This document shows positions 433 to 57,177 of a DNA stretch of 64,000 nucleotides, piece by piece; positions within the stretch are counted from its first letter, which is position 1, and every line of letters starts with the position of its first letter. The DNA lies in NCBI GenBank assembly GCA_964016885.1, contig OZ024742.1:281666001-281730000 (forward strand), written 5' to 3'. The translations under genes and the position numbers were made by a program. The notes beneath the pieces were generated by a model. That model was given only the letters and a program-made list of their open reading frames with translations. It ran no database searches and was not told the origin of the DNA. Origin of the DNA: Eledone cirrhosa (lineage: Eukaryota).

Positions 433-728
433 TAGACATCTTAACAGGAATAAACATGCACGGTCTCAAGTAGTAAAAGTCCCTTCTTTCCTGTTGTCCA
501 CTTTCGTTACAGTTCAGAAGATGCTTATAAGTGAAATGCTATGTGTTAAGAGCAATAAGACCATTATTCAACTTTGTACTCCACACCTAGGTAATATAGA
601 GTTTGAACATTATTATAGGATAGAATGACCATTATACCTTATAGAATATATATATATATATATATATACAAAGGAATCGTAAAAGACTATTTCGAGTTTA
701 TAACTCAATATTTTATATATATATATAT

Positions 729-888
729 AAGTATGTACACGTACATACATATATGTATACAGACGTACAGTAGTATGTATATATATATATACATACATGC
801 ACACATATATATATGTACGTATGGATTCACCGAACATTTATTATAATGCTCGGTGTGTTTGTAAACAAACATCCCGTATTAAGCCGTA
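729..888 (-). repeat. Inverted partial copy of HHR repeat family A
   Basis: Reverse complement of about 1361-1525, embedded in (TA)n. Confidence 0.85.
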
Positions 889-986: not shown

Positions 987-1039
<53 letters not shown>

Positions 1040-1041
<2 letters not shown>

Positions 1042-1583
1042 ATATATATACATACTACTGTACGTCTGTATACATATATGTATGTACGTATACATACTTA
1101 TATTTAAGTAACAGACGTACTAAGAGTGAGAAATGAAATTTCGTTTCATTTTTTCCGTTTATCCTTTTCAGTGCACCCGGCCGATTAACCCACTCGATAT
1201 GCAAATTGGGCTACTCAGCCGTTAATATGCATAAGATAAGTATATACGTTCAACAATCTGGCAGAAAGGTATACGTTGCTGACGATAGCTAATAAGCTTG
1301 AAACTAGTACAGCGTTCCTTTGTCAGTGTTGAACAAACGAGCAACGATGGTTGCTAGACACTACGGCTTAATACGGGATGTTTGTTTACAAACACACCAA
1401 GCATTATAATAAATGTTCGGTGAATCCATACGTACATATATATATGTGTGTGCATGTATGTATATATATATACATACTACTGTACGCATGTATACATATA
1501 TGTATGTACGTGTACATACTTATATTTAAGTAACAGCCGTACTAAGCGTGGGAAATGAAATTTCGTTTCATTTTTTCCGTTTA
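1040..1583 (+). mobile_element. HHR-containing tandem repeat family A (retrozyme-like), about 1.3 units of 422 bp
   Basis: catactactg recurs at 1051 and 1473. Contains an HHR. Ends aaatgaaatttcgtttcattttttccgttta followed by (TA)n. Confidence 0.8.
1273..1315 (+). ncRNA. Type I hammerhead ribozyme (family A)
   Basis: acgttg-CTGACGA-t.agc.taataa.gct.t-GAAA-ctag-TA-cagcgt. Stem I extends over about 1248-1332 (gttcaaca..ctggca.aaagg pairs with ccttt.gtcag.tgttgaac). Confidence 0.85.
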
Positions 1584-2229
1584 TATATATATATATATAT
1601 ATATATAATACAAATATATATATATATATACAAATGGAAGTTTAGTAAAATCTAAGTTTTTGGCTGTGGCCAAGCTATCGATAAACAATCAGGAATGTGC
1701 AGTAAAGCACACGAAAAGGTTGTGCCACTTAGAGTATTAACATACGTTAGAAAACTTGACAAATTGAAGACTGCGACCCGTTACCCAGCCACACGAACCA
1801 AAGCAACGAGAAAACCAACTCAGATATATAATATATAATATATATATATATGATTTTTAATGCGATGAAATACCAATGATCGTTGGCAAATCACTGATGA
1901 GGGACTCATTTTATAACATGCAATCCATGTGCAACCATGCAGTATTCTTCTCCCCATATTTTTCATATATATATATATATATATATATGCTATGTTGGCG
2001 TGTTTGACCTTTTGATTGAACCAAATATTTACATTGCGGCAGATCTTCGAGAAATCGCGAGAGTATTGCCAAGAGATATATTCTTGTTTTGAAAAGACTT
2101 ATAACCACGTTTCTCGAGAACTGCCGTGGAAGGTTCTGTAAGAGTAATGGAATAATGGATTGATGGGCAGCTTCTTGTAGTACTGATTAATCTATACGAA
2201 TGCCCGATTATTTGTTTTCGCATAAATGG

Positions 2230-3315: not shown

Positions 3316-3394
3316 TTCTAAACATTCTTGACTTTAGTCCTCCTTCAGATTATAGAATGAGAAATCAAAGAAGAAATAGAAAGATATATATATA

Positions 3395-3425
<31 letters not shown>

Positions 3426-3590
3426 AGATAGGTAAATATACACGGGTGTGTATGATTGTGTATAGAAGATTATATTAATAAGAGGAATTCCAACTTTGTC
3501 TGATTTACTCGTTTTATTTACGATCCTTTAAAATATATAATGGTATTATAATGAAATAGTATGATAGAATATTAAATTCTAAGTGTTAAT

Positions 3591-3629
3591 TGAACAAGTA
3601 CTTTCATGCTTTCGCAATCTTCAGGTTCA
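3591..3629 (-). ncRNA. Minimal type I hammerhead ribozyme in PLE1 pseudo-LTR
   Basis: Minus strand: tgaac-CTGAAGA-t.tgc.gaaa.gca.t-GAAA-gtac-TT-gttca, with a palindromic stem III (AGUACU). Confidence 0.85.
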
Positions 3630-4006
3630 TAATATGTGGTGACAGTCGAGTTTGCAATTTTCAACTGTAATGAGATGGGTAAATTTCCTACCTTTTATAC
3701 ATTTTATACAGAGAAAGGTGGCTCCAGAATGCTAAGCCCTGTAAACTGTATTTCGAACAATCAGTGTGTAGTTTCACTGAATTACTAAAGCTGATTGGTT
3801 TAAGCGTCACGGCTGGTTGAGCATGCTAACGACCAATAATCATATCCAAAGCATCAATTGTTTTGCTATTTTTAGAAATGATGAAAATAGCATTTTCTAT
3901 TAATCATCACGATCAACATCACTTTTATTATTATTATTATTGTTGTTGTTGTTGTTGTTAGTGGTCGTGGTCATAGTGGTAGTAGAAGTAATACCCCTAA
4001 GCGTTA

Positions 4007-6179
4007 TTATTGTTCATTTAGCTTGGGTTTGAATTTATCAATAACATTCTTTTCTTTGATTTTTCTCTTGATTTCACTTGGGCTGTGTAATTTGTAAAAT
4101 GGAAATATTATAAATATTCCCTGACCACATGTTGCTAGGTGGTTGCTTAGAGGTATCTGACGGACATTTGGGTCTCTGATTTGTTGACGGTGCACCCGTG
4201 CACGTTCCAGTTTGACCGACATATATTTCTTCACAATTCGGGCATTTAATGCAGTAAATTAGATTTCTGCTTTTGCAGTTCATATTTGTATTTGGGAATA
4301 TTTTTCCAGTTTTTGTTTTCATATATTGACCGGTGTGTATGGATTGACATGTGCCGCATCGACTATCATTGCATTTAGATACAGTGAATGATTGGTCTTT
4401 GTTGTTAAGGTCAAACTTTGCTTTTGTTAGTAATTGCTTCAAATTTTTTGGCTGTCTTTTACTAAGAGTCAAAGATCGATCTGTGATTAAGCCTTTTAAT
4501 TCATTACTTTGAGCAATGATCGGTAGGTTTGCTTTGGCAGTGTTGAAGATATTCTGGTGACATGGGTTGTGTGTCATTATAAATGGTATGACCAGTTCTT
4601 GGTTTCTTCTTCCTTGGGTTGTTCTAAGTTGTTGCATAGGTATTTTTATAGACCGCTGTATGCCATTTTCTATAAATAGAGATGGGTATTTTTGTTTGAG
4701 CAAAAATTCTTTTAGTTCTGTTAGGCGTTTGTACCTGGTATTCGTATCTTCTACAATAGTACAAATTCTTCTGGCTAGGTAGTATGGGATGTTGCGTTTT
4801 GTATGAGGTGGATGGCACGACTTAAAATTCAGATATTGATGGGTGTCTGTGTGTTTATAATATATATTCGTGGTAATGGTGGTGTCGTTTTTGATTATCA
4901 TTATATCTAGGAATGGTAATTTGGTCGTACTCATCTCTTTTGTGAATTGGAGAGATGGGTGTAGGTTATTCAGGAGGATATTGAACTCATCCAGAGTATC
5001 TAGAGATTCTGTCCAGATGATGAAACAGTCGTCAAGGTATCTCTTCCAAGATTTTTCAATGTACTTTCTAAAGTCAGTACTATATTTTTCCTCTATTTCT
5101 TGGTAGAGTTGTTGTTCTAAGTATCCCATTACAGAGTTCGCGTAAACGGGAGCAAACTTCGTTCCCATCGCTGTGCCTCTAATTTGGATGTAATTCTTTC
5201 CATTGAAGAAGAAAGTGTTGTTTTCCAGAATAAGTTTAACTGCGTCTAATATAAATGGCGCCGTGAATCTAATGGGAATCACTTCTCTATGTTTTTCCAC
5301 CCAGTATTTAACCGCCTTTATTCTTAAATCATGTGTAATGTTGGTGTAAAGGCTTACCACATCAAAACTGAGTAGAAGTGAATTCGTTTCCGTGGTTTTG
5401 TGAAGATGGGACAGGAAGTCGATATCATCCCGGATGAAACTGGGTATGTGAATACATAGTGATTTCAAAATAATGTCAACAAAATTGCTTAGACAATGGG
5501 TGGGGCATGTTGGACCAGCTATAATAGGTCTAAGTTTTAAGTCTTTTGGGTGTAATAATTTAATGTACTCACTGTTTTGTTCTCTTACTGCCAGTTGTAT
5601 TTCTTTTGACTTATGAACTTTCGGTAGGCCATACAGGTTGCTGGGTTTCGGCTCAAAATTGGTGATGTAGTCTCTTTCCTTATCAGTAAATGAGTTGTGG
5701 TATTTTGAAGCCAGGTTGTTGATCTTCTTCATGGTGTTGTGGTCTATATTTGACGGTATTTCATGATAGAATGTTGTGTCTTTCAGCTGTTCCTCAACCA
5801 AATCCTTGTAGTATTCAGTATCCATTATAACAACTGCACCTCCTTTATCTGCTTGTTTAATTATTATTGTTTTATCATTTTGTATACGTTTAAGTGCAGA
5901 CATTTCTGATTTGTTAATGTTTGGCCTAACATTAGTATTATGTCTAAGAGGAAATTTAGACAGGATGTCAATGTATTGGTCGAGATAGATATTTCTTCCT
6001 TTTGGCGGAGTGAAATTTGATTTATTCTTTACTAGTGATTCATCACTCTCATTATTTTTATCAGCGAAGAATTCTACAAGACGTAATTTTCGACAGAATT
6101 CTTGGGTATCCTCCTTCAGTTCTTGGTGGTTGACTGTTGGAGTCGGTGTGAATTTCAGTCCTTTTGACAGAATTTGCAT
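4007..6179 (-). pseudogene. PLE1a reverse transcriptase + GIY-YIG endonuclease, frameshifted in the endonuclease
   Basis: SKGLKFTPTP, ADKGGAVV, LRPII, FDVVSLYT, GTAMG, RYLDD, Cys linker CNDSRCGTC, IYCIKCPNC..YVGQTG. The endonuclease continues in another frame (ARVHRQQIR..HL..PKLNEQ, ORF 4007-4234). Confidence 0.9.
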
Positions 6180-6226
6180 TTCATCATTGTCAAGATCTCT
6201 TTTAGATAAATTAATTATTTTAGGAT

Positions 6227-7333
6227 CTACGTGTACAGCTGTTTTGGGTATGTTTCCTCCTGGAGTTTTTCTTTTTCCGGTTTTTGTTGTCCTGACGTTA
6301 AAAAATGGATTTTTCTCTGTTCAGGATTTATATTCCTGTTGGTGTTCGCTTGATGAACTTTTGGTCGTGATATTATATTTGGTTTCGTTATGTATTTTGT
6401 CCTATTTTTGGTATTCTGTATATTATTTTTCTTCCTGTTAGCATTATTTTTAACAATCTGGGAAAATGACCTAGGTTTGCTTTCAGGTTTAGATCGTTTT
6501 TTCGTCCAGTTTCTTGTGGGCAATCTCTGTTGAGATCTTGAGAGTGATCTGGTTATTCTACGTTTTGTTTTCACATTCCTTGTTGGTAGTTTCTGTTGAG
6601 ATCTTGAGAATGATCTCCTGGTTTTACTACTTCTCATGGTCTGGTCAAAGTAATATCTATCGTGTTCTTGCTTTTTGTTCATGTTGTGTGCGATAGGGTG
6701 TTTTTGTAGAAAAAGCGAAGAGTTATTACCGTAGTTCTTCTTTGATTCAAGGTAAGGTGAGTGTTTGTGTTGGCACGTGTTCTGGCGTATGTTGTGTTGA
6801 TGAGATTGCCCACTTTTAATGCTTTTTCTCAGGGTTCCAGAGTCTTTACCGTAATTTGCAGCATATTCATCGAGAAATAATTGTTTCTGCTGCCATACCT
6901 TTCTTGATTTGTTTTCTTCTTTTGAGATATCTCCGATCCATAGTTCTCGTAGTTTTTCAGCTATAATACCAGTCGTTAGCTTTGAAATTTCAACTTCAAT
7001 TTGGTCATCAATAGCTTCATATTTAGCTTTGTAGCGGGATTGTTTACATTCAGAAATGGAGATGTCGGTCCTGAATTTTGTCAATGTAAGTTCCCATCGG
7101 AGTTTTGTTTCTTCTTCTGGTTCTCCTGCAATTTCTGTAATTAGGTATTTACGAGGGAGTATGGGTGCCGTTAGAGAGAGCCATTTCGAATGTGTTTCGA
7201 CATATTTTTCGCATCTGTATGCTTTCCAGAAATTTTGTTTTCTTATGTTAAGGAATTTTTTCCATGTCTTCCACATTTCTTTTCTTATTCGATGTGTTTT
7301 GTTTTCCAAATTTCTTTCGTTTATTTCTGACAT
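6227..7333 (-). CDS. PLE1a ORF1, predicted helical/coiled-coil N-half and basic K/R/S-rich C-half
   Basis: 368-aa ORF directly upstream of RT on the same strand, with a repeated SRSQQ.LPTRN motif. Nearly identical to 8001-9107. Confidence 0.7.
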   Translation of the reverse strand: MSEINERNLENKTHRIRKEMWKTWKKFLNIRKQNFWKAYRCEKYVETHSKWLSLTAPILPRKYLITEIAGEPEEETKLRWELTLTKFRTDISISECKQSRYKAKYEAIDDQIEVEISKLTTGIIAEKLRELWIGDISKEENKSRKVWQQKQLFLDEYAANYGKDSGTLRKSIKSGQSHQHNIRQNTCQHKHSPYLESKKNYGNNSSLFLQKHPIAHNMNKKQEHDRYYFDQTMRSSKTRRSFSRSQQKLPTRNVKTKRRITRSLSRSQQRLPTRNWTKKRSKPESKPRSFSQIVKNNANRKKNNIQNTKNRTKYITKPNIISRPKVHQANTNRNINPEQRKIHFLTSGQQKPEKEKLQEETYPKQLYT

Positions 7334-7469
7334 CCAAGGGGGTTGTGGGGTTGTGGTAGGCTTTCTCTTGTATCTTTGATAACTGTTGGTATAATTTCAG
7401 CTAAATTCATTTGTTGCTTTCCAGACATGTTGGCATATACACAATAGGAATATATATATAGATATAGAT

Positions 7470-7724
7470 AGGTAAATATACACGGGTGTGTATGATTGTG
7501 TATAGAAGATTATATTAATAAGAGGAATTCCAAATTTGTCTGATTTACTCGTTTTAATTACAATCCTTTAAAATATATAATGGTATTATATTGAAATAGT
7601 ATGATAGAATATTAAATTCTAAGTGTTAATTGAACAAGTACTTTCATGCTTTCGCAATCTTCAGGTTCATAATATGTGGTGATAGTCGAGTTTGCAATTT
7701 TCAACTGTAATGAGATGGGTAAAT
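7470..7724 (-). repeat. Inverted PLE1 pseudo-LTR at the 5' end of copy b, with HHR at 7631-7669
   Basis: Direct repeat of about 3431-3684 with the same HHR sequence. Confidence 0.9.
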
Positions 7725-8000
7725 GTCCTCCTATTGTGTATATGCCAACATGTCTGGAAAGCAACAAATGAAACCAACAGAATCAGAAAGAATTCTAAAG
7801 GAGATATCATCGAAATTATCAACACTTATCACGATGATGGACACACAATCCTCTATTTTAAAGGAAATAGAAAAACAATCTACAGACGGAAAACTTATAA
7901 CTGAACATATAAACTCTGAAATTAAGAATTTAGCTGAAATTATACCAACAGTTATCAAAGATACAAGAGAAAGCCTACCACAACCCCACAACCCCCTTGG

Positions 8001-9107
8001 ATGTCAGAAATAAACGAAAGAAATTTGGAAAACAAAACACATCGAATAAGAAAAGAAATGTGGAAGACATGGAAAAAATTCCTTAACATAAGAAAACAAA
8101 ATTTCTGGAAAGCATACAGATGCGAAAAATATGTCGAAACACATTCGAAATGGCTCTCTCTAACGGCACCCATACTCCCTCGTAAATACCTAATTACAGA
8201 AATTGCAGGAGAACCAGAAGAAGAAACAAAACTCCGATGGGAACTTACATTGACAAAATTCAGGACCGACATCTCCATTTCTGAATGTAAACAATCCCGC
8301 TACAAAGCTAAATATGAAGCTATTGATGACCAAATTGAAGTTGAAATTTCAAAGCTAACGACTGGTATTATAGCTGAAAAACTACGAGAACTATGGATCG
8401 GAGATATCTCAAAAGAAGAAAACAAATCAAGAAAGGTATGGCAGCAGAAACAATTATTTCTCGATGAATATGCTGCAAATTACGGTAAAGACTCTGGAAC
8501 CCTGAGAAAAAGCATTAAAAGTGGGCAATCTCATCAACACAACATACGCCAGAACACGTGCCAACACAAACACTCACCTTACCTTGAATCAAAGAAGAAC
8601 TACGGTAATAACTCTTCGCTTTTTCTACAAAAACACCCTATCGCACACAACATGAACAAAAAGCACAAACACGATAGATATTACTTTGACCAGACCATGA
8701 GAAGTAGTAAAACCAGGAGATCATTCTCAAGATCTCAACAGAAACTACCAACAAGGAATGTGAAAACAAAACGTAGAATAACCAGATCACTCTCAAGATC
8801 TCAACAGAGATTGCCCACAAGAAACTGGACGAAAAAACGATCTAAACCTGAAAGCAAACCTAGGTCATTTTCCCAGATTGTTAAAAATAATGCTAACAGG
8901 AAGAAAAATAATATACAGAATACCAAAAATAGGACAAAATACATAACGAAACCAAATATAATATCACGACCAAAAGTTCATCAAGCGAACACCAACAGGA
9001 ATATAAATCCTGAACAGAGAAAAATCCATTTTTTAACGTCAGGACAACAAAAACCGGAAAAAGAAAAACTCCAGGAGGAAACATACCCAAAACAGCTGTA
9101 CACGTAG
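8001..9107 (+). CDS. PLE1b ORF1 (368 aa; likely extended upstream by the overlapping ORF 7750-8013)
   Basis: Open ORF that overlaps the RT reading frame over 9014-9107. Confidence 0.7.
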   Translation: MSEINERNLENKTHRIRKEMWKTWKKFLNIRKQNFWKAYRCEKYVETHSKWLSLTAPILPRKYLITEIAGEPEEETKLRWELTLTKFRTDISISECKQSRYKAKYEAIDDQIEVEISKLTTGIIAEKLRELWIGDISKEENKSRKVWQQKQLFLDEYAANYGKDSGTLRKSIKSGQSHQHNIRQNTCQHKHSPYLESKKNYGNNSSLFLQKHPIAHNMNKKHKHDRYYFDQTMRSSKTRRSFSRSQQKLPTRNVKTKRRITRSLSRSQQRLPTRNWTKKRSKPESKPRSFSQIVKNNANRKKNNIQNTKNRTKYITKPNIISRPKVHQANTNRNINPEQRKIHFLTSGQQKPEKEKLQEETYPKQLYT

Positions 9108-11141
9108 ATCCTAAAATAATTAATTTATCTAAAAGAGATCTTGACAATGATGAAATGCAAATTCTGTCAAAAGGACTGAAATTCACACCGACTCCAACAG
9201 TCAACCACCAAGAACTGAAGGAGGATACCCAAGAATTCTGTCGAAAATTACGTCTTGTAGAATTCTTCGCTGATAAAAATAATGAGAGTGATGAATCACT
9301 AGTAAAGAATAAATCAAATTTCACTCCGCCAAAAGGAAGAAATATCTATCTCGACCAATACATTGACATTCTGTCTAAATTTCCTCTTAGACATAATACT
9401 AATGTTAGGCCAAACATTAACAAATCAGAAATGTCTGCACTTAAACGTATACAAAATGATAAAACAATAATAATTAAACAAGCAGATAAAGGAGGTGCAG
9501 TTGTTATAATGGATACTGAATACTACAAGGATTTGGTTGAGGAACAGCTGAAAGACACAACATTCTATCATGAAATACCGTCAAATATAGACCACAACAC
9601 CATGAAGAAGATCAACAACCTGGCTTCAAAATACCACAACTCATTTACTGATAAGGAAAGAGACTACATCACCAATTTTGAGCCGAAACCCAGCAACCTG
9701 TATGGCCTACCGAAAGTTCATAAGTCAAAAGAAATACAACTGGCAGTAAGAGAACAAAACAGTGAGTACATTAAATTATTACACCCAAAAGACTTAAAAC
9801 TTAGACCTATTATAGCTGGTCCAACATGCCCCACCCATTGTCTAAGCAATTTTGTTGACATTATTTTGAAATCACTATGTATTCACATACCCAGTTTCAT
9901 CCGGGATGATATCGACTTCCTGTCCCATCTTCACAAAACCACGGAAACGAATTCACTTCTACTCAGTTTTGATGTGGTAAGCCTTTACACCAACATTACA
10001 CATGATTTAGGAATAAAGGCGGTTAAATACTGGGTGGAAAAACATAGAGAAGTGATTCCCATTAGATTCACGGCGCCATTTATATTAGACGCAGTTAAAC
10101 TTATTCTGGAAAACAACACTTTCTTCTTCAATGGAAAGAATTACATCCAAATTAGAGGCACAGCGATGGGAACTAAGTTTGCTCCCGTTTACGCGAACTC
10201 TGTAATGGGATACTTAGAACAACAACTCTACCAAGAAATAGAGGAAAAATATAGTACTGACTTTAGAAAGTACATTGAAAAATCTTGGAAGAGATACCTT
10301 GACGACTGTTTCATCATCTGGACAGAATCTCTAGATACTCTGGATGAGTTCAATATCCTCCTGAATAACCTACACCCATCTCTCCAATTCACAAAAGAGA
10401 TGAGTACGACCAAATTACCATTCCTAGATATAATGATAATCAAAAACGACACCACCATTACCACGAATATATATTATAAACACACAGACACCCATCAATA
10501 TCTGAATTTTAAGTCGTGCCATCCACCTCATACAAAACGCAACATCCCATACTGCCTAGCCAGAAGAATTTGTACCATTGTAGAAGATACGAATACCAGG
10601 TACAAACGCCTAACAGAACTAAAAGAATTTTTGCTCAAACAAAAATACCCATCTCTATTTATAGAAAATGGCATACAGCGGGCTATAAAAATACCTATAC
10701 AACAACTTAGAACAACACAAGGAAGAAGAAACCAAGAACTGGTCATACCATTTATAATGACACACAACCCATGTCACCAGAATATCTTCAACACTGCCAA
10801 AGCAAACCTACCGATCATTGCTCAAAGTAATGAATTAAAAGGCTTAATCACAGATCGATCTTTGACTCTTAGTAAAAGACAGCCAAAAAATTTGAAGCAA
10901 TTACTAACAAAAGCAAAGTTTGACCTTAACAACAAAGACCAATCATTCACTGTATCTAAATGCAATGATAGTCGATGCGGCACATGTCAATCCATACACG
11001 CCGGTCAATATATGAAATCAAAAACTGTAAAAATATTCCCAAATGCAAATATGAACTGCAAAAGCAGAAATCTAATTTACTGCATTAAATGCCCGAATTG
11101 TGAAGAACTATATGTCGGTCAAACTGGAAATGCACTATCGG
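9014..11141 (+). CDS. PLE1b reverse transcriptase + partial GIY-YIG
   Basis: Frame is open from 9014 (first ATG at 9155). RT motifs DKG, DVVSLYT, GTAMG and YLDD are intact. The endonuclease is truncated at 11141. Confidence 0.9.
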
Positions 11142-11869
11142 AAAAAAGTGTATGTTGATAAGTATTGTGGCAATTTCAAAATTAACGAAGAGAAAAAAAT
11201 ATTAAGGTAGAAGGATTTGAGAAAAATAATGTGAAGTTAAAGTTTGTATATTGAAGGAATTGATAATATGTGCGAATAGAGAGTTAATATGTATTAAGAA
11301 TGAGTTCGTTGATGGGGAGAAAAAAATAATAAATTAAGGATGAAATTGAGATTAAAAAGTTTTAATTTATACATTAAAAAGTTTTAATTCATACATTATC
11401 TTCCAACGGTTCTCAACCTCTCTATGTAAAACAATATATCTTTTCTCAGTTATAAAAACTATCTCTTTCTCTCTATCACCCATCTCTCCCTCTCCACCTT
11501 CACTCTCATCTCCTCCCCCTTTTTTCATTCCTTCCCCCCCCCCTCCCTAAATAAAATATGTTTTCCTCGTACATATCTTCCCTTCGTTAATTTTCAAATT
11601 CTTTTAATTTATACATTATCTTCCAACGGTTTTCAACCTCTCTATGTAAAACAATATATCTTCTCTCAGTTATAAAAACTATCTCTTTCTCTCTATCACC
11701 CATCTCTCCCTCTCATCTCCTCCCCTTTTTCATCCTTTCCACCCCACCCCCCTCTCTAAATAAAATATTTTTCCCAATATCACACATCAATCTAAAACCA
11801 CTTTTCATATGTTGATTTAAAACTGTACTATCCACAAGTGTTTTTTAGCCTTCATATCATGTTCTCCTG

Positions 11870-11936
11870 TTTTATCTGATGAAAACACAAATATTATTGC
11901 ATGATGATGTTTGTTTTTGAAATGCGCATAATAAAA
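11870..11936 (+). ncRNA. Type I hammerhead ribozyme in PLE2 5' pLTR
   Basis: ttttat-CTGATGA-aaacacaaatattattgcatgatgatgtttgttttt-GAAA-tgcgca-TA-ataaaa, with a palindromic stem III. Confidence 0.85.
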
Positions 11937-12142
11937 TACATGGAACTCCTTTAACCATCTTTTGATCTTATATTATGTATACTCCAGTCCTACAAACTGT
12001 AGAGTGCTTCTTATCCGATATCTGCATTGCTTTATTGTACTACAATAAAACTCACCTCCTACATTAACTTGCTCCTTAACGGTTGAGCGCTTACTCTCCT
12101 ATTGGATACCTTTTGATGGTCTTTTACCTCTTCTTCTACAAC

Positions 12143-14544
12143 ATGGATTATTACAACATAACCAATTCAACTAAAGACATTCCTATACCTGGTAAATCTG
12201 AATTCACCAAACTTCTTATTGAAAAAACTGACTCCTTCGTAAGAAGACTTAGATGGACAGCCTATTTCTATGACCAGCGCCTAAAAGGGAACTTCCATAC
12301 CAAAGAATATAACTTCCTCGATCATCTATTTAATTCTAGACGAAATCCTCCTTCCAACAAAAATCTAGTACAATTCGAGGAAGAATTAACTAAAATAATA
12401 AAAAATCTTAAATTCAAGAGATACCCTTACAAAGGACAAGAGCACCTTGTAAATCTCAAGAACACAATTTCTAACCTAAATTCCTCAAAAAATGTTTTAG
12501 TCCACTCTGACAAAACCAATAACTTATATGGTATTTCCAAGGATAATTATAACAACCTTATCCTAAAGGAACTTAGGAAAAAGTATCGTAAAACCAACCA
12601 TGAAAATTTAGAATACATAAACCTTGAAGCCTCTGAGATTATGGCAAAACTTGGCATTGAAAAAAAGACCTAACCATTCCTCCCAAGAACTCCGAGGATA
12701 AATCTCAAGGATCACAAAAACAATTTTCGCACTGAACTACCTGTTAGATTAATCGCCCCCTCTAAATCTGATCTGGGGTTGTTAGTAAAGCCATCTTGGA
12801 TAGAATTATCCCACAGGTTAGTTCTAATTGCTCTTCTTTGAACCTAAATTTATGGTTTGGTACTTCTGAAGTGATTGGCTGGTTCAACAAATTGGATAAT
12901 AAAAACAAACTAAAATTTATTCAATTTGATATTGCCAGCTACTATTCCTCCATTTCGCCTTCACTTCTCAATAATGCTCTATCTTTCGCACTTAAATATT
13001 CTGACATCACCACAGATGAACTTCACATCATCCTCACCGCACGTAAAACCATCCTAGATTTCAACAACGAATATTGGACCAGAGCCGATACCTCTAACAA
13101 CTTCGACATCACAATGGGAGCATCCGATTCATCCCAATTGACTGATTTAATTGGTATCTTCATTTTGAACTCTTTGAGTCGGAAAATTCCTCAACTTCGC
13201 GGTGGAATTTATCGTGACGATGGACTCTTTACTATCCTAAATTGCAATATAGTTAACCTTAATATTATTAAGAACAATATACGTAATCTCTTTAACCAAC
13301 ATAACCTAAAAATTGAATTTGATAATAGTATCAAACTAGCTAATTTCTTGGATGTATCTCTTAATCTTGACACTGGCCTATATTACCCTTACCATAAAAA
13401 CAATGAGAACCTAAATTATGTTAACTTTAAATCTAACCATCCTACCAATATCAAGAATGCTATAGTTAGTAATATTGGAAAAAGAATATCTAACATATCT
13501 TCTAATAAAAACATCTTTGATGCTAACACCAATTACTATAATAACGCACTTTCTAAAGCCGGCTATCCAGATAAAATCAAATATAGTAAAGAAACAAATT
13601 CTAGAAAAACTTACAGTAGAATAATTAATCATGATCATTCCAATAATTTTAATAAAAGACCTAGATACAAAAACATAATCTGGTATAATGCTCCTTTCTC
13701 CATCTCTATTAATAACAATATTCCTAAATTATTTTTTAGTGCCTTAAATAAATGCTTCCCTCCCTCACATATCTATAGCAAAATATTTAACAAACACACC
13801 ATCAAATTTTCTTATTCTACATCCTCCAATATTTCCAACATCATCTCTAAACACAACAATAAAATACTAAATACTAAATCTCTTCCTTCCAACATTAAAT
13901 TTCATAATAACAGTAATAGTACTCCCGACGTCATTGTAAACCCTAGGCTAACTTCTGTAAACCCAAATACAACGTCAAACACAACTTCGCTAAATGTTCA
14001 TAATCCAACTCTAAATCAAGAAACTATTATTCCTATTATTCCTATCGCAAACAACTTCTCCAATCCAATTCCTTCTATAGATAACACTAGGTCACTCATT
14101 AATAATCTCTCTAATTGCAACTGCCGCATTAAAAATAAATGTCCTCTCAACAACCATTGTCTCGATAAAAACTTAATTTATGAATGTAAAGTTATAACTA
14201 GCACCAATTCCTTCACCTATTTTGGCTCCACTTCCACCTCTTTTAAAGCTCGTCTCTATAATCACCATTCATCTTTCAAATACAAACTTAAAAGAACCAA
14301 CACGGCTCTCTCAGAACTCATATGGTCCTTGAAAGACAAAAACATTAAATATACCATCTTTTGGAAGAAGGTTTCTTCTGCATCCTCATACTTGAACAGC
14401 TCTCTATCTAAAATCTGTAATCTCTGCCTAAATGAAAAATTTACCATTATCTCTAATCTAGATTCTATAATAAATAGACGTACAGATTTGTTTTCTATCT
14501 GCCTGCATAAATTCCATAGGACTTTTCACAAAGTATACAGTTAA
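12143..14544 (+). pseudogene. PLE2 RT + GIY-YIG, with an in-frame stop at 12671 and a frameshift near 12780
   Basis: SDKT, LKDHK..F...LPVRLIAPSKSDLG, FDIASYY, ITMG, YRDDG, CNC-x5-C-x5-C linker, IYECKV..YFGST, CNLC. Confidence 0.88.
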
Positions 14545-15575
14545 TATTCAATTCTTTATCAATTTAGAATCTTTTCTCAAAGGCACATATACATACACCT
14601 CTTTAAAATATACCCATCTTCCTACCCTACTTCAAAGGGCATTATACACTCTATAATACTTGTTTACTCATTACCCTTTTTCTATCTTCACCTTGTAAAA
14701 TCCTTCATAACATATACATTTGTTTTTTTGACGTTAGAATATTCATCCGCAATTATTATTATTTTTTCTCTCTATCTTAAAACTTTTTAATCTCAATTTC
14801 ATCCTTAATTTATTATTTTTTTCTCCCCATCAACGAACTCATTCTTAATACATATTAACTCTTTATTCGCACATATTATCAATTCCTTCAATATACAAAC
14901 TTTAACTTCACATTATTTTTCTCAAATCCTTCTACACACAAACCTTAATAATTTTTTCTCTTCGTTAATTTTGAAATTGCCACAATACTTATCAACATAC
15001 ACTTTTTTTGACGTTAGAATATTCATCCACAATTATTATTTTTTCTCTCTATCTTCATACATAAATTCCCTTCGTTAATTTTCAAATTCTTTTAATTTAT
15101 ACATTATCTTCCAACGGTTCTCAACCTCTCTATGTAAAACAATATATCTTTTCTTAGTTATAAAAACTATCTCTTTCTCTCTATCACCCATCTCTCCCTC
15201 TCCACCTTCACTCTCATCTCCTCCCCCTTTTTTATCCTTTCCCCCCCCCCTCCCTAAATAAAATATTTTTTCTTCGTACATATCTTCCCTTCGTTAATTT
15301 TCAAATTCTTTTAATTTATACATTATCTTCCAACTGTTTTCAACCTCTCTATGTAAAACAATATATCTTCTCCCAGTTATAAAAACTATCTCTTTCTCTC
15401 TATCACCCATCTCTCCCTCTCATCTCCTCCCCTTTTTCATCCTTTCCACCCCACCCCCTCTCTAAATAAAATATTTTTCCCAATATCACACATCAATCTA
15501 AAACCACTTTTCATATGTTGATTTAAAACTGCACTATCCACAAGTGTTTTTTAGCCTTCATATCATGTTCTCCTG

Positions 15576-15642
15576 TTTAATCTGATGAAAACACAAATAT
15601 TATTGCATGATGATGTTTGGTTTTGAAATGCGCATAATAAAA
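15576..15642 (+). ncRNA. Type I hammerhead ribozyme in PLE2 3' pLTR
   Basis: Second copy: CTGATGA at 15582, GAAA at 15625, then tgcgca-TA. Confidence 0.8.
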
Positions 15643-15842
15643 TACATGGAACTCCTTTAACCATCTTTTGATCTTATATTATGTATACTCCAGTCCTACA
15701 AACTGTAGAGTGCTTCTTATCCGATATCTGCATTGCTTTATTGTACTACAATAAAACTCATCTCCTACATATATATATATATATACATATATATAGTGAA
15801 GAAACATAAGTCAATTGCATGAATTCATAATCCTTTATTTTT

Positions 15843-15898
15843 ACTGCTATATATATTTCGATGATAGCCATTGAATGGCTATGACCTCATCAGGCAGT
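15843..15898 (-). ncRNA. Type I hammerhead ribozyme in a short orphan PLE-like 3' fragment (about 15797-16110)
   Basis: Minus strand: actgc-CTGATGA-ggtc.atagcca.ttcaa.tggctat.catc-GAAA-tatata-TA-gcagt, followed by AATAAA and (TA)n. Confidence 0.85.
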
Positions 15899-16253
15899 TA
15901 GTCAGTTCTTAGATATGCCAGATATGTTTATATGGGAAATATGAGCTTGTTAGGAATAATTTTATGTTGTCAGCAGGAATAATCTTAATTCTCATTGGTC
16001 AGATGCTAGTAGGGTTGGTATTTAACCTCAAAGAGGCAGGTGGTGTTGTAAAGTTCAAATCGTCAGGCAAGATGACAATAGTTCCATATGACTGATTTTC
16101 ACAAAAAGCATATATATATATATTTATATATATATATATAGTAGTGAAAGGGTGAAGAATAACATGCTCGGCTGTACAAAAAAGTTTTTATCTATAGTAT
16201 TAACAATTGTTTCATTAATCTAACTGGATTACCTAAAACGATAACTTGTTATC

Positions 16254-17909: not shown

Positions 17910-19645
17910 TGCCTGGCGGGATATTCGTCTCGGCGGTAGTTCCCCCATCGCCCGCCACTTTGGCGCCCCTGGACATTCCGCGCACCACCTCACAGTCTGT
18001 GGCCTACTCCAATGCCACGGAACACCCGCCACCCTCCTCAGGGTCGAACAACGCACCATATTCACCCTACAGACCCACACTCCCCCCGGCCTGAACTCCC
18101 CACCCATATTCCTTTAGCCTTCGACCGCCATGCCCCCCACACACACACATATCCCCCACTAACACCACTAACACACCCCTCATTTTCACCGCCCACCCCA
18201 CAACTAACACCCCCCATCCCACACCCGACCACCCTTCCCCAACTACTAACACCCCTCCTTTCACCCCCCCCCTTATCACGCACACACCCACCGGTACATA
18301 TATACACGCACTAACACTAACCACACACCCTACTACCACCACTATCTCTCACACCCACACATCCACTCCCATCACCCCACAACTAATACAACTAACACCC
18401 CCACCCCCACCCCACGCCCACGAACACACACACACTTACACCACCCATTCTACACACCCTACCACCACTTATCCCCACTATCACCCACATTCAACCCTTC
18501 CCCACCACCAGTATACTAACACCCCCTTCACCACACACACACTCATCCAAACACGCACACACACACCAGTACACTACACTCCCTCCACCGGCCCCCACAC
18601 CTTTCCCCTCCCCCATTCCCCTCCCCGCTCCAACCACACCCTTTCACACACACACACACACACATCCCACTAACACCTCTATTAATACACCCCCCTCCAG
18701 ACTCCACATTTCACGCCTACCCATCCTCTCCCCTGTCCACCGCACCTCCGCACACACTGACACACCGACTTTCTCCACCTGCCATTCTCCCCGACTGCTG
18801 CTATGCCCTGTCTCTCTGACCACCTCTCCGCACACACATACACACAACCCTCGTCCTGCCTTGACCCTCTAACCACTTACCGTTGCGCGCGCACCCCACA
18901 TCTCCCCTCTTCCGACCAACCCAACCATGGATTACACACACGAATCAACTCCATCACAAGGAAATTACCAGGCATATCACCACATCCGCTACGGAATTAC
19001 CTTAGGAACTCACCCACGGACATACACTAAAAAAAAAATTTTCCCACACGCCACCTACATCCACAATACGTATAAACACCACACACACGTGGGTACCACC
19101 ACATATTTACACACTCAGCCTCCGGAATCCTCTCCTCCACTCCCCCACCCCTCTGAGCCCTCCCCATCCACACACGCACACACACACCGACCTAAACCCC
19201 ACCACAGACACCTTTTCCTGAATATGCAACCCCGTTCTTCCCCCAACTCTCAAATTCACATACACACACACACACACGTACACCTACAGACACACACCAC
19301 CTTCAGCCCTCCCCGCTCGGACACCCCGCCTCCTCTCCCCACTCCACCCGCTACCACCCCTACACGCCCCACACCCTTCCACCACTTGTTTTACTTCATG
19401 TTTATTTTTATTATGCTTTCATATTTATTTTCATTTGTACCGTTTCTTCTCACCACCTTTCTTCTAAATGTCTCTCCCCCACTCCCCTACACACCCTTGG
19501 AACTCTCTTCCCACACACTTTTCGCCTGAACAAGGGCTTATGCCCGAAACGTCGTCCCCACCACCACCCCACTCTCAAGAGCGTGAAACTAATAAACCTT
19601 TGTTCGTACTGCCTCTCTGTTTTGTTCCCGTTCAATGTTTCACTA
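17910..19645 (+). mobile_element. 5'-truncated copy of C-rich PLE3 (endonuclease C-terminus, 3' UTR, mutated HHR at 19526-19553)
   Basis: Homologous to about 35165-36842. CTGAACA-agggcttatgccc-GAAA-cgtc. Flanked by (TA)n. Confidence 0.85.
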
Positions 19646-22629: not shown

Positions 22630-23282
22630 ATTGGCAGTATCGGTAGAAGGTCAGACGCCGTGATTTACAGCATAAAGTTACGGGACTTTACGGCCTGAGT
22701 TCAAATCCCACGAAGGTTAACGTTGCCTTTCATCCTTACGGGGTCGATAAAATAAAGCACCAGTAATACACTGGCATAATTGACGGCCTTGTGCTGAAAG
22801 TAGAAACAATTATTACCACTACTGGCAGAATCGGTGATCGTCGGACAATATTTTTCGTGGCATAGAGTTACGTACCTTTACCTTCTGAGTTCTAATCTTG
22901 CCTAGGTTCGCTTTGTCTTTCAATCTTACGGGTCGATGAAATAAAAACACTAGCAATGCACTGGAGTAGATTTAATCGACTTTCCCCAATTCCTAAATAT
23001 GTTGGCCTTGTGCCTAAATCAGAAACCCTTGTGCCAAAAGTAGAAACAATTATTACCCCAACTGGCGGAATCGGTGGATCATCGGACAATATGCTTTGCG
23101 GAATAGAGTTATGACCCTTTAATTTCTGAGTTCTAATCCCGCCAAGGCTAGCTTTGCCTTTCATCCTTATGTGGTCGATAAAATAAAAGCACTAGTAATG
23201 CACTAAGGTAGATTTAAACGGCATTCTCCCACACCTTGTGCCTAATTCAGAAATCATTATTACCACCATTCAGACCAGGTTG
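22630..23282 (+). mobile_element. Three head-to-tail S1 SINE copies
   Basis: Heads at about 22630, 22820 and 23060, each with box A/B and the conserved body. Confidence 0.8.
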
Positions 23283-32385: not shown

Positions 32386-32583
32386 ATATATATATATATA
32401 TATATATATATGATTTTTTGTCTTTAATTTTCCGGTGTTTACTCCACCCCCCTCCCTACGTTTTTCTGTTTCTTTTTCCCTTCCCCGTCTCTGCCTATCT
32501 TCGCACTCACCCCTTCGTTCACTCCACCCCGCTTCACACCCCCGCCCTCTCATCCCTCCCCCTGCTTTCACCCAACGCCCATC

Positions 32584-35395
32584 ATGGCCAACCTGAGATC
32601 CTTTCTCCACCAACTCCACAATCGCCTCAAACTTGTCCTCACCCCCCACCTTCCACCCTGCTATCTCCCCTCCGCCCTTCAACTCTCCTACCTCTCTTCG
32701 CCAAAACCCGGCACTCCAGCCACATCCATTTCCTCAGCCACTGCCTCCGCCTCCACCTTATCCCCCTCGGCTTCCGTCTACACTTCCACCCCTCCCCCGC
32801 TGCTTCCCCCTCCACGCAACGTATCCTCACCCGATCCTCACGCCTTCTGATGCGCAACTCCATCCGCGCCTCCCGTTCCACCCTCCGCCTACTTGACCAC
32901 CAACTGACCCCCACCCTCCTCCGCCTTTACTCCACCTGCCACCCCCTCCTCGCCCAAGCCATTCTCTCCTTCATGCACAACCTCAACCACAACCTCTTCT
33001 CGTTCCTCAGCTCCACCAAAGCCCGCAAGCTACACTCACTCCTCCCAACCCCCCACATCCACCACCACCCGCCCATCCCCATACGCCCACCACTCTCCAC
33101 CTCTCCCCCGACCCACATCCCCACCCAATCTCCACCCTCCACCTCACCCTTCACCACACCCTCCCTTCCCTCCCCAAACCCCCAAACCCCACCCCTTGTT
33201 GTCACCATACCCCCTGACCTCCCCCTCTCCGCACCTGAGCGCTCACTCCTTAGTAGAGGCCTTCGCTTCATACCCCACACTCCGCTCAGCGACGAGTTCC
33301 GCACCCGAACGGAAGTCGAGCGATTCGTGCGACGCACTAAGCTACAGGCACATTTCAGCCGAACGCCACCGGCTCCGGACGCCCCAGACCCGTTTCTCGC
33401 CCTGGGCCGACGACCATCTTCTTGGACGCCGGCCCCAGGGCAATTTAGCACCCTGGACGCCTTCGTCGATGCCAGCCGTAGCGCAGTAAATCGTTTCGAC
33501 TTCCGCCACCGTTCCAAACGGCACAACATCTCACGGGGCGAACTCCTCGCTCTCCGCTCCCTCCGTAGCCGAGATGACATCGTCATCAAACCGGCGGACA
33601 AGGGAGGCGCCGTGGTGGTATGGCGCGCGGACCTCTACACGGCCGAAGCCCTCAGGCAGCTCTGTAACCCCCTCTTTTACCGCCCTCTACCCTCCGATCC
33701 CACCCCCCTCTACCAACAGCAAGTCTCCTCCACCATCAAAGACCTTATCGCCTCCTCCCTCCTCCCCCCCACCGCTTCCCATCTCATCGTCCGCACCCCC
33801 CGCACCCCTACCATCTACTTCCTCCCCAAACTCCCCAAACCCGACAACCCCGACCGCCCCATCGTCTCCGCTTGCAACTGCCCAACCGAACTCATCTCCG
33901 CCTTTCTCGACTCCCTCCTCGCCCCCTTGTCACCACCCTCCCCTCCCACATCTCTGACACAAACCACGCCCTGCGCTTTTTCGACTCCTTCACCTACCTA
34001 CCCGGCCCTCAGCCATTCCTCTTCACCCTAGACATCAAGTCCCTCTATACAGTCATACCCCACGCCGACGGCCTTCGCGCCCTCAAACACTACCTCGACC
34101 TTCGCCCCTCCCCCATTCCCTCCACCCCCACCCTCCTTCGCCTCGCGGAGCTGGTCCTCACCCTAAATTGTTTCTCCTTCTCGGGTGAGTTTTACCAACA
34201 GGTCACGGGGGTAGCCATGGGCACAAGAATGGGCCCGAACTATGCCAACCTTTTTGTTGGCCATGTTGAGGCCCAAATCTTTGCCCAGTACACCGGCCCC
34301 ACGCCCGAACTGTACGGTCGTTACATTGACGACTGTATCGGAGCCACGACCCTCACCCGAGTACAGCTCGACTCCTTTCTCTCCTGCTTCTGCTCCTTCC
34401 ACCCCTCCCTCCACTTCACCACCTCTATCTCCACCACCCACGTCCACTTCTTGGACATCTCCGTCGCCTTCGACCCCTCCCACCACTCCCTCGTCACCTC
34501 CGCCTTCTTCAAACCCACCGACTCCCACTCTTACCTCGACTTCACCTCTTCCCACCCCACCCACACTAAACTCTCCATTCCCTACTCCCAACTTCTCAAG
34601 ATCCGCCGCCTCTGTAGCCGAGATGCTGACTTCGAGTCCCAGGCCCTTTCCCTAGTCAGCCATTTCATCCGCAGAGGTTACCCCCCCCTCTCTCTCCACA
34701 CCGCTCTCACCCGCGCCCGTGCTATCCCCCGCTCCACCACCCTCACGCCACGCCACCGCACACCCACCCACCGTCTCCCCTTCCCCATCACCTACCACCC
34801 CTCCACCTTACCCCTCCACCGCACCATCCGCCGCCTCTTCCGACGCCTCCAGTCCGACCCCTGCACCTCCCACATCTTCCCAAACCCACCACTCCCCTCC
34901 TTCAAACGCGCACGCAATCTCCGCACCCTCCTCGTCCACAGCTCCCTACCCCCCAACCCACGCTCCGTTTCACCCCCCGGTTCCTTCCCCTGTTCTAGGC
35001 CCCGCTGCAACACCTGTCCCCACATCACCAACACCACCACCTTCCAGGGTCCCAACGGCCACCCTCTCTCGGTCCGGCATGCCTTCCGCTGCACCTCCTC
35101 CAACCTACTCTACGGACTTCGTTGCACGGAGTGCAGCGCGACTTAAGTCGGACAGACGGGACGTCGCCTGGCGGACCGAGTCACGGAGCACCTCCGGGAT
35201 ATTCGTCTCGGGGTCAGTTCCCCCATCGCTCGCCACTTTGGTGGCCCTGGACACTCCGCACGCCATCTCACAGTCTGTGGCCTACTCCAGTGCCACGGAA
35301 CACCCGTCCATCGCCTTACGGTCGAACAACGAACTATCTTCATCTTACAGACCCACACTCCCCCCGGCCTGAACTCCCCACCCTTATTCCTTTAG
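32584..35395 (+). pseudogene. PLE3 RT + GIY-YIG (frameshifts near 32695 and 33930; TAA at 35144 replacing the Tyr of YVG)
   Basis: HFLSHC..LIPLGF, SRGLRFIP, KPADKGGAVV, LDIKSLYT, GVAMG, RYIDD, CSRPRCNTC, YGLRCTEC..*VGQTGRRLADR..EH..RHF..PGLN. Confidence 0.9.
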
Positions 35396-36721
35396 CGTTC
35401 GACCGTCCCCCTCCCCCCACACTTATTCCCCACTAACACCACTAACACACCCCTCCTTTTCACCGCCCACCCCACACTAACAATACTAACACCTCCACTC
35501 CACCCCTCATCTGACCACCCTTCCCCAACTAACATACTAACATCCCTTCCCTCCCCTCTTCTCCTCGTCCCCCCTTCTTATCATACGCACACACGCACCC
35601 ACTTACACCACCCACCCCACACGCAACTAACATCACTAACACCCTCCAACCCCACGCACACGTACCCACATACCCTCGTACACCACCAACTCTACACACC
35701 CTATCCCCACTAACCCCCACTCACACCTGCATTCCACCCCTCCCCACCTCCCGTATACTAACACCCACTAACACCTCTTCACCAAACTACACACACACCA
35801 GCACACCACACTCCCTCCATAGAAACACACACACCCTTCTCTCCCCTCTCCACACTCACTCATCCCACTAACACCCCTACTAATACACACACACAAACAC
35901 ACACACACACACCCTCCTCACTCCAACTCTCACACCTACCCATCCTCGCCTCCCTACCATTCCGCCGACTGCTGCTATGCCCTTCCGACCACTGTCTCAG
36001 CACCAACTGACCACAGCACTCCCACTGCTGACCACTTCCTGTTGCGCGCGCACCCCACATCTCTCCTCTTCCGACCACCGCTTCTTGGATTACCCACACG
36101 CGATATTGACTTCTAACCAAAATCTCCAAACATCCGTGTAACTTACCAACTTTTCAACCATCCTCTTACACCATCACCTATATAACTCACCCACACACAC
36201 ACCCCAAAAATTTTTTTATCCACACGCCACCCACACCCACAACACGCGTAAACCACACACACGTGCTTCCCACCACATATTTACACTCTCAGCCTCCTGA
36301 TTCCTCTCCCCCCACCCCCCTATCCACACACGCACAGACCCTCCGACCCACAAAAACCCACCTCACACACACCTTCCTGAACATGCAACCCCGTTCTTCC
36401 CCAAACCCTCACTTTCACATACACACACACACACACACACACGCACACCTAACCACACACACCACCTTCAGCCCTCCCCGCTCGGACACCCCGTCTCTCT
36501 CTCCCCACTCCACCACCTGTTTACCACCCTTTTAATTTCAGTTTATTTTGATCATGCCTTTATTTTTAAATTTTCTCATTCCTTGTATTTTGATCATGCT
36601 TTATTTTTATTAATTATTTATTATATTTTTGTCTTTATTTGTTAATTTTTTGTTTCCATTCGCTATATGTCTCTCCACCACTCCCCTACACACCTTTTGA
36701 ACTCTGTTCCCACACACTTCT

Positions 36722-36754
36722 CACCTGAAGAAGAGCTTATGCCCGAAACGTCGT
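36722..36754 (+). ncRNA. Minimal hammerhead motif in PLE3 3' end
   Basis: CTGAAGA-agagcttatgccc-GAAA-cg-TC. Stem I is weak. Confidence 0.6.
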
Positions 36755-36855
36755 CCCCCACCTACCCCCCACTCTCCTGAGTGTGAATTTAATAAACATT
36801 TATCGTACTGCCTCTCTGTTCTGTCCCTGTTCAATTTTTCATTATATATATATAT

Positions 36856-37092
36856 ATATTTCGAACGTTCAACTATCTGGCAGATGGGTATACGGTGCTG
36901 GTGATAGCTAACAAGCTTGAAACTAGTACATCGTTCCTGTGTCAGTGTTGAACAAAAAGGTGACGTGGTTGCCTTAACACCGTATGGCATAAATTCACGT
37001 TTTTCAGTTTGTTTACAAACGAACAAAGCGGCGTTATAATAAGCGTCCGCTAAACTGATGCGTGCATATATGTATGTGTACCTATATGTATA

Positions 37093-37165
<73 letters not shown>

Positions 37166-37610
37166 GCATGCTACTGTACGTCTGTATACATATATGTATA
37201 TACGTATACATACATACTTACATTTAAGTAAGTGCCATACTAAGAGTGAGAAATGAAATTTCGTTTTCTGGGGGTTTTTTTAAAACTTATCGTTTTCGGT
37301 ATGCCTGACCGATTTAACTCACTCAACATGCAAATTAGGCTGCTCAGCCGTTAATTTTCATAAGGAAAGTATATACTTTCGAACGTTCAACTATCTGGCA
37401 GATGGGTATACGGTGCTGATGATAGCTAACAAGCTTGAAACTAGTACATCGTTCCTGTGTCAGTGTTGAACAAAAAGGTGTCGTGATTGCCTTAACACCG
37501 TATGGCATAAATTCAGACTGTTCAGTTTGTTTACAAACGAACAAAGCGGCGTTATAATAAGCGTCCTCTAAACTGATGCGTGCATATATGTATGTGTACC
37601 TGTATGTATA

Positions 37611-37698
<88 letters not shown>

Positions 37699-38281
37699 TG
37701 TATATGCATGCTACTGTACGTCTGTATACATATATGTATGTACGTATACATACATACTTACATTTAAGTAAGTGCCATACTAAGAGTGAGAAATGAAATT
37801 TCGTTTTCTTTTTTTTTTTTCAACTTATCGTTTTCGGTATGCCTGACCGATTTAACTCACTCAATATGCAAATTAGGCTGCTCAGCCGTTAATTTTCATA
37901 AGGAAAGTATATACTTTCGAACGTTCAACTATCTGGCAGATGGGTATACGGAGCTGATGATAGCTAACAAGCTTAAAACTAGTACATCGTTCCTGTGTCA
38001 GTGTTGAACAAAAAGGTGACGTGGTTGCCTTAACACCGTATGGCATAAATTCAGGCTGTTCAGTTTGTTTACAAACGAACAAAGCGGCGTTATAATAAGC
38101 GTCCGCTAAACTGATGCGTGCATATATGTATGTGTACCTGTATGTATATATATGTATATGCATGTTACTGTACGTCTGTATACATATATGTATGTACGTA
38201 TACATACATACTTACATTTAAGTAAGTGCAATACTAAGAGTGAGAAATGAAATTTCGTTTTCTGGGTTTTTTTTCAACTTA
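36856..38281 (+). mobile_element. HHR tandem repeat family A, about 2.8 units
   Basis: HHR cores at 36898 (CTGGTGA mutant), 37416 (intact) and 37954 (GAAA to AAAA mutant). Unit lengths 518/538 bp differ because of internal (TA)n. Confidence 0.85.
37410..37452 (+). ncRNA. Type I hammerhead ribozyme (family A)
   Basis: acggtg-CTGATGA-tagctaacaagctt-GAAA-ctag-TA-catcgt. Confidence 0.85.
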
Positions 38282-38293
38282 TATATATCTATA

Positions 38294-38912
<619 letters not shown>

Positions 38913-39164
38913 AACATATATATATATATACATATATGTAGAGGTTCTATTTAAATTGTTGGGATGCAACAAGCAAATATTTTTATAACTGATATAAAGC
39001 ACTCAACAAATTATTGGAGTAAAAATACGATATATTATCAAATGGAAACTATATTTATGAAACCTAATTTGTTTCATTATACATATATATATACATATAC
39101 ATATATATATGTATATATATATACATATATATGTGTATATATATATAGATATATATATGTATAA

Positions 39165-39342
39165 ACTTGACTGTCACCACTGTATCTGACCCTGAAGATT
39201 GCGAAAGCATGAAAGTACTTGTTCAATTAACACTTAACATTTAATATTCTACCATACTATTTCATTATAATATCATTATAATTTGAAAAGGATTCTAAAT
39301 AAAACGAGTAAATCAGACAAAGTTGCAATTCCTTGTATTAAT
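39165..39342 (+). mobile_element. Solo, diverged PLE1 pseudo-LTR with HHR (39187-39225)
   Basis: Reverse complement of about 3474-3650. CTGAAGA-ttgcgaaagcat-GAAA-gtac-TT-gttca. Confidence 0.85.
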
Positions 39343-47208: not shown

Positions 47209-47331
47209 CCCATACGAATCGTTTCATTATAATATTTCTACATGGCGAGTGAAATTATACCGAGTTATGTAGAAGCTTGTGTAAGATCAATGGATTCTTA
47301 TACAAGTGGGCTCTAATAAATCTTCAGTGGG
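47209..47331 (-). ncRNA. Hammerhead ribozyme with branched stem II insertion
   Basis: ccca-CTGAAGA-t.ttat..[cttgtataaga/tcttacacaag hairpin][ttctacat/atgtagaa hairpin]..ataa.t-GAAA-cgattcg-TA-tggg. Confidence 0.65.

Positions 47332-55087: not shown

Positions 55088-55172
<85 letters not shown>

Positions 55173-57115: not shown

Positions 57116-57177
<62 letters not shown>

Follow-up and report, generated by a model that had tools for sequence, protein, structure and literature searches.

Two fixed internal end sites, divided between opposed arms, in non-coding hammerhead repeats that are probably copied by PLE enzymes

An anole PLE (PAc, Poseidon, Anolis) starts reverse transcription in vitro internally, at two adjacent stem-loop sites. 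It nicks AT-rich DNA on both strands, extends each of them and can dispense with its hammerhead; the interval between the two start sites was equated there with the PLE tail (PMC11167929). Genomic PLE copies, as described in two further papers, carry an inverted arm and a tail of 30-40 bp, often at one end only, and have (TA)n as their targets (PMC8557442, PMC3846280). It has been proposed that circles are copied by PLE enzymes into tandem cDNA (PMC7229834, PMC4209133), and a preprint links retrozymes to PLE terminal repeats, leaning to local amplification for the arrays and leaving the mechanism open (bioRxiv 10.64898/2026.07.22.740005). The retrozyme unit sizes stated are 150-450 bp (PMC7229834) and 51-972 (bioRxiv 10.64898/2026.07.22.740005). 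Metazoan non-LTR retrozymes are further characterised by self-cleavage, by the accumulation of circular RNA and by the lack of LTR, PBS and PPT; their target-site duplications, where there are any, exceed 4 bp.

The families described here, A, B and C, lie in a 64-kb window (the whole stretch of DNA analysed, positions 281666001-281730000) within a 3.0-Gb animal genome. Like the metazoan non-LTR retrozymes, they are non-coding and AT-rich, carry a single type I hammerhead in every tandem unit, range from dimers to large multimers and co-occur with PLEs; a highly paired circle is a further resemblance, both ribozyme and circle being predicted in our case (PMC7229834; bioRxiv 10.64898/2026.07.22.740005). 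Judged by their sequence, A, B and C appear to be new members of the animal retrozymes, which would behave as PLE substrates without being PLEs. The same two retrozyme papers, in their accessible text, propose mobilisation by PLEs without mapping ends, whereas here the ends are fixed and paired between arms. With the PLEs of PMC3846280 and PMC8557442, A and B share partial tandems, a head-to-head arm, an extension at one end, a preference for (TA)n and a hammerhead, which in PLEs lies within the terminal repeat; however, A, B and C have no ORF, and the tail of A and B measures 61-77 nt instead of 30-40. With PAc, they share two internal starts downstream of the hammerhead, a stem-loop, the extension of both target strands and a hammerhead cut that is not used as an end. 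The PAc start sites, however, are described as AC-rich, without homology to the target and without a difference between strands, whereas the sites in A and B are U/A-rich, overlap the target and are used one per arm (PMC11167929).

For PLEs, the qualitative pattern has been published before, both the tail on one arm and the pair of internal starts. The present analysis adds a quantified pairing rule and corrects a terminator idea put forward in an initial annotation of the window. A search of titles, abstract openings and passages in the open-access literature returned neither an end mapping for retrozymes nor a rule of one site per arm. The results bear on the entry of retrozymes into genomes and on the origin of the PLE tail, both of which are open questions in the accessible published work.

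Retrozyme families and their setting in the window

Hammerhead cores located by motif search lie upstream of the ends in all three families, are of type I and occur once per tandem unit, the units being 422-453 nt long in A, 466 nt in B and about 685 nt in C (Table 1). In the A2 array, the core of the last unit is mutated. An Rfam scan of the window, dominated by microsatellite miRNA matches, returned HH9 for family B only (37.7 bits, against a gathering score of 52). Stop-free frames of at least 150 aa were not found over the A, B and C arrays, and an ORF with RT and GIY-YIG is absent from them. Since A and B align across their entire 3' region, we regard them as homologous relatives in which the landmark had one origin, and not as independent cases.

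Table 1. Features of the window, in window positions
Feature	Position	Strand	Remarks
Family A1 inverted arm	722-888	-	outer end S1 (~728) joined to (TA)n; 95.3% to 1362-1528
Family A1 direct arm	1011-1584	+	~1.36 units (unit 1163-1584, 422 nt); stops at S2
Type I hammerhead, A1	1258-1326	+	core 1279, predicted to cut after 1309; stem III minimal and palindromic
S1 hairpin	1517-1532	+	6 bp, 4-nt loop; S1 junction at stem-loop border, ~1522-1526; also in predicted circular fold
Tail S1-S2, A1	1523-1583	+	61 nt; on one arm only
S2 hairpin	1549-1577	+	predicted 3' arm is the T-run
S2 junction into (TA)n (landmark of the initial annotation)	1580-1590	+	
PLE-like frames	9014-11155 with inverted twin; 12080-14541; about 32400-35400; 63303-63986		
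ORF-bearing PLE	11382-15770	+	frames 12080-12670, 12772-14541; direct terminal repeats
Family A2 array	36853-38281	+	single arm, S2 end; starts in TA run at 3' end of C-rich PLE
Remnant of terminal repeat of PLE 11382-15770	38391-38828		two arms; the long end and the short end each run into (TA)n
Family A3 copy	45805-46536	+	single arm, S2 end; 5' end ~30 nt upstream of predicted cut
Family C copy	47030-47820	-	unit ~685 nt; hammerhead-like motif, long stem II; predicted cut ~47213
Family B inverted arm	55167-55884	-	outer end S1
Family B direct arm	55878-57045	+	2.5 units of 466 nt; S2 end; hammerheads 56247, 56713

The initial annotation had placed the ends of the three family A plus arms at the same unit position (1583, 38281, 46536), which we confirm, as we do for B (57043-57045). 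Its estimate that the ends lie 180-300 nt past the ribozyme cut holds approximately: the distance is 275, 297 and 276 nt in A and 302 nt in B, whereas 173 nt separate the family C cut from the shared motif. The plus arms of A and B reach (TA)n through a TTA(T) overlap, in register.

Family C shares only a 9-10-nt word with the end of A and B, and no hairpin sequence. This word had been taken for the C end as well. Among 30 family C copies inspected by eye, about nine read through and about 20 end in TA; of the latter, one stops exactly at the shared word, one is ambiguous, like the copy in the window, and the rest end 4-12 nt further on, mostly 8-12 nt, so that the word was rejected as the C junction. 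In the window copy, variant base(s) make the junction seem earlier than it is; it probably lies about 8 nt past the motif. Two-armed insertions of this family are rare, with three distinct loci showing a clear opposed arm among 60 that were fetched (some of them twice), and a second end site was not established in this sample, which was anchored on a motif close to the C end because an anchor placed further upstream matched the window copy alone.

The window is rich in (TA)n and contains several frames that we take to be PLE-like, on motifs read by eye; Pfam reported RVT_1, below its cut-off, in two of seven such frames. An inverted arm, a tail at one end and a (TA)n target, which characterise PLE-mobilised insertions, were all found in A and B; as regards the inverted arm and tail, the resemblance is weak for C.

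Two end sites and their division between opposed arms

To sample family A, we chose an anchor of 26 nt immediately beyond the landmark, which has 20,114 exact matches in the genome, and fetched the first 100 on contig C1. The 85 arms obtained, sampled regardless of their end, comprised 39 that stop at the landmark, termed S2, 32 that stop at a site about 61 nt upstream, termed S1, and 14 that stop elsewhere; two rows of this set go back to a single segmental duplication (L075), and at L092 the S1 call may reflect an inversion junction. Thus, 71 of the 85 ends fall into two windows that make up about 6% of the unit, far above chance, and (TA)n follows 68 of these 71 ends versus two of the other 14. 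Random 3' ends were rejected on this count. Carried out on this sample, the check over genomic copies that the initial annotation had called for bears out a non-random distribution of array ends, but not its single fixed landmark, as S1 is used about as often as S2. In the window, too, the inverted arms (722-888, and that of family B from 55167) stop at S1, 61-77 nt upstream of S2, a range that covers the S1-S2 spacing across families A and B.

Exact-pattern counts over the genome found 3 copies joined to (TA)n at the ribozyme cut and 3,884 joined at S1. For S2, the count was at least 1,850, its pattern leaving out the commonest A1 variant as well as those of A2. As the patterns are unequal in length, these numbers compare in orders of magnitude only. 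The ribozyme cut has no part in either the S1 or the S2 end. At the other extremity of the arms, 5' ends are spread along the unit: of 128, two lie no more than 8 nt from the cut and seven close to the start of the core, where about five would be expected in each case, although palindromes make the caller of these ends noisy. In one subfamily, nine copies begin at the cut after TA. With three (TA)n joins at the cut and two 5' ends near it, ribozyme-cut ends, 3' or 5', were rejected. The copy at 45805-46536 had been read as a ribozyme-started read-through transcript; however, it begins at the core, about 30 nt before the predicted cut, and, given the dispersion of 5' ends, is better regarded as an ordinary 5'-truncated copy.

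In back-to-back insertions, the two sites are divided between the arms. A script classified 48 of 54 head-to-head pairs as S1+S2 and none as S2+S2. Family A contributed 34 of 39 S1+S2 pairs (28 of 33 in the anchor set, five of five best-match loci, which had been selected for an S2-phase unit, and the one pair in the window) and family B 14 of 15. The 28 pairs of the anchor set include two duplicates, and L066 is possibly two insertions. In a separate walk along the arms, the lone pair called S1+S1 (L087) turned out to have an S2 end, and among four pairs of S2 with another end, three resemble S1 variants by eye, while L109 is interrupted by other sequence. Both arms of a pair tend to be of the same variant: a three-state subfamily marker is common to the two arms in 30 of 35 pairs (shuffled pairs average 11.7, and none of 20,000 shuffles reached 30), several pairs have private variants in both arms, and arm identity is 95.8% within pairs versus a median of 90.9% between them. 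In no more than 12 of 32 pairs, however, is an arm at least as similar to its own partner as to its closest match elsewhere.

Two hairpins are predicted in the tail region. Of 137 family A tails, 96-100% retain the pairs of the S1 hairpin; most departures from them produce G-U, and a single position in the loop varies freely (79 T, 57 C). Two-sided compensatory changes were not found among these 137 tails. The S2 hairpins of A and B differ, by eye, in a single swap of U-A to C-G. The initial annotation had considered this hairpin common to all families, yet its folding is strong only in A1 (z -4.05) and B (z -3.88), weak in the A2 and A3 copies of the window (z -0.96 and -1.44), and the corresponding sequence of family C is unrelated.

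Mechanism and rival explanations

A and B are abundant non-coding hammerhead repeats with two fixed internal end sites, one on each arm, and we consider it likely that they are copied by a borrowed PLE RT-endonuclease. A PLE protein would bind the double-hairpin tail, and the enzyme would cut both strands of (TA)n and prime one cDNA per site, with each target 3' end pairing with a few U/A residues of S1 or S2. Both cDNAs would halt at variable points before being joined head to head; an insertion in which only one arm succeeds would be left with a single arm, its end at one site or the other. Less surely, the template would be a monomer circle made by the hammerhead and copied repeatedly, or an uncut multimer. 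In L1 twin priming, two target ends likewise prime two cDNAs that become joined as an inversion; there, however, the position of the second primer varies and the pieces do not overlap, whereas the sites of A and B are fixed and their arms overlap. Internal priming at two sites makes the landmark the downstream edge of a PLE-type tail and not the end of a transcript. Of the initiation proposed in the initial annotation, defined sites that are neither the cut nor random, with a short U/A overlap to (TA)n, therefore stand, and so does the notion of a recognition signal, which matches the PLE tail as described in PMC11167929; a defined RNA 3' end or terminator does not.

A more specific version of this scheme is possible, although we put it forward only tentatively: a PLE dimer may sit on a single RNA circle of a retrozyme and place its two active sites one at either edge of the 60-75-nt double-hairpin module, so that the ends of a double-strand cut in (TA)n prime one site each and both enzymes travel round that circle. 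If so, the module would be a portable cis signal, sufficient for the two-armed insertion of any RNA, and its sequence would be free to diverge from the helper's own tail. The 60-75-nt RNA piece is in any case named as a candidate signal, and the near-strict rule that retrozyme families A and B share with an ORF-bearing PLE from this genome makes a sharp prediction for the in vitro PLE assay.

Two arms could also arise from one cDNA that is primed at S2, copies itself by folding back and is resolved by the endonuclease at S1, the tail then being a mark of DNA processing; self-priming and resolution by EN have been suggested for PLEs (PMC3846280, PMC8557442). Such a route would explain one tail per insertion without extra assumptions, as well as the variants common to both arms, and several inversion junctions do lie at palindromes of the unit (L060, L050, L067). 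It predicts, however, that the S1 arm is contained in the S2 arm. Among 36 pairs, the S1 arm is the longer in seven and the S2 arm in six, with 23 unresolved, and in L039, L082, L091 and L110 neither arm is, by eye, contained in the other. As either arm can be longer and neither need be nested, two separately primed cDNAs are favoured over a folded-back one. Single arms in the anchor set, moreover, end at S1 about as frequently as at S2 (15 versus 19), and two antisense cDNAs would likewise need to join at palindromes. On balance we regard fold-back as improbable.

The view of the initial annotation, that copying begins at a terminator-like 3' end of a linear read-through transcript, draws on the fixed S2 ends and on the T-run that comes after a hairpin in A1, A2 and B. 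A terminator of the Pol III/SINE type yields a single 3' end within a free run of at least four T. Here, there are two ends of similar weight, both of which are read through by some units, the S2 junction lies beyond the T-run, itself predicted to pair within the hairpin as its 3' arm, four T are missing in 11 of 49 S2 ends and, by eye, in more than half of 100 listed S2 joins, and 70 of 177 marker matches read through the landmark. A terminator-ended RNA was rejected on these grounds; it would also leave the rule of one site per arm unexplained, and we hold this view to be very improbable. The same low probability attaches to an artefact at the level of DNA, whereby recombination or slippage with (TA)n trims arrays at TA overlaps and unequal crossover enlarges them. 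S1 does adjoin an internal TA-rich stretch, and amplification of DNA does happen, as a heterogeneous array on contig C21 attests. Nevertheless, the A1 unit has 8 TTA and 51 TAT/ATA sites, yet two regions hold 71 of the 85 ends; the cut site ends in TA as well, with only three joins; and trimming cannot produce a systematic difference between opposite arms.

Templates, arrays and PLEs

The preferred reading, copying from two internal sites by a PLE enzyme, leaves a choice of templates. In the young insertions L050, L106 and L112, a comparison of 4-7 units, spread across one arm or both, gave 0-1 difference in 200 bases, compared with a mean of 16.5 and a minimum of 1 between insertions, whereas 8-21 bases differ among the units of one insertion in L074, L087, L107 and L069. 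Uniform units fit repeated copying of one circle and, equally, a uniform multimer transcript. Since copies that span the ribozyme are common, a cut linear monomer would not be the usual template. The fixed ends had been used as an argument against a circle, which does not carry, because a circle copied from fixed internal starts would yield identical ends; the circular RNA is predicted to fold with 64-69% of its bases paired. The C21 array (G000:C21:33958500-33981000), with at least 53 heterogeneous family A units and repeated variant blocks, probably grew later as DNA. Another array, at G000:C1:95942764-95965964, holds about 50 family B units, the last arm being inverted. Contigs of two other organisms contain about 35% of the sampled family A words, which is a lead to a family that reaches relatives.

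The same rule was seen in the ORF-bearing PLE at 11382-15770, whose frames have a C-terminal GIY-YIG-like motif by eye and gave no informative Pfam match. Its terminal repeat has 10,881 matches in the genome. Among the first 30 repeat copies, 15 have short ends, 12 have long ends, about 90 nt further on, and three continue into the ORF, and all ten sets of opposed neighbours, judged on orientation and distance, combine a short with a long end. A comparison of the family A and B tails with four PLE ends in the window found only words of 7-10 nt in common and identified no helper.

Two insertions join family A to PLE sequence. In L109 (750-3214; G000:C1:36251200-36256200), a family A arm is fused, in a TA-rich stretch, to a PLE-ORF piece with 98% identity to the PLE ORF near 12 kb of the window, and the opposite arm stops at S2; a template switch naming the helper and a nested insertion are both possible. 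In L069 (4266-7004), pieces of family A and of a PLE ORF are mirrored about one centre.

Further PLEs occupy parts of the window. The one at 3385-11140 contains a 3.2-kb inverted duplication of 99.5% identity (4205-7408 versus 7926-11129), has minus-strand hammerheads at 3624 and 7664, with 5,758 matches to the ribozyme motif genome-wide, and is interrupted in its plus arm near 11140 by unrelated sequence. This 3.4-11 kb family has two apparent end classes, which were left uncounted because the alignments overran into TA. A strongly C-rich PLE, at 32400-36845 and 17917-19645, has broken RT and GIY-YIG-like frames and a 3' hammerhead at 36725, and both copies stop in (TA)n about 90 nt past the predicted cut. 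On the minus strand at 63303-63986, a frame without a Pfam match resembles the RT thumb of PLEs and is cut by the edge of the window. More hammerhead-like cores, belonging to other families, lie at 15820-15900, 39163-39340 and 57056-57290, one of them beside a 182-nt palindrome. An abundant SINE-like repeat of about 190 nt, partly in tandem, occurs at 246-433, 22630-23230, 42497-42803, 47841-48201 and 49704-49892, and one copy of it sits inside the family C copy of the window.
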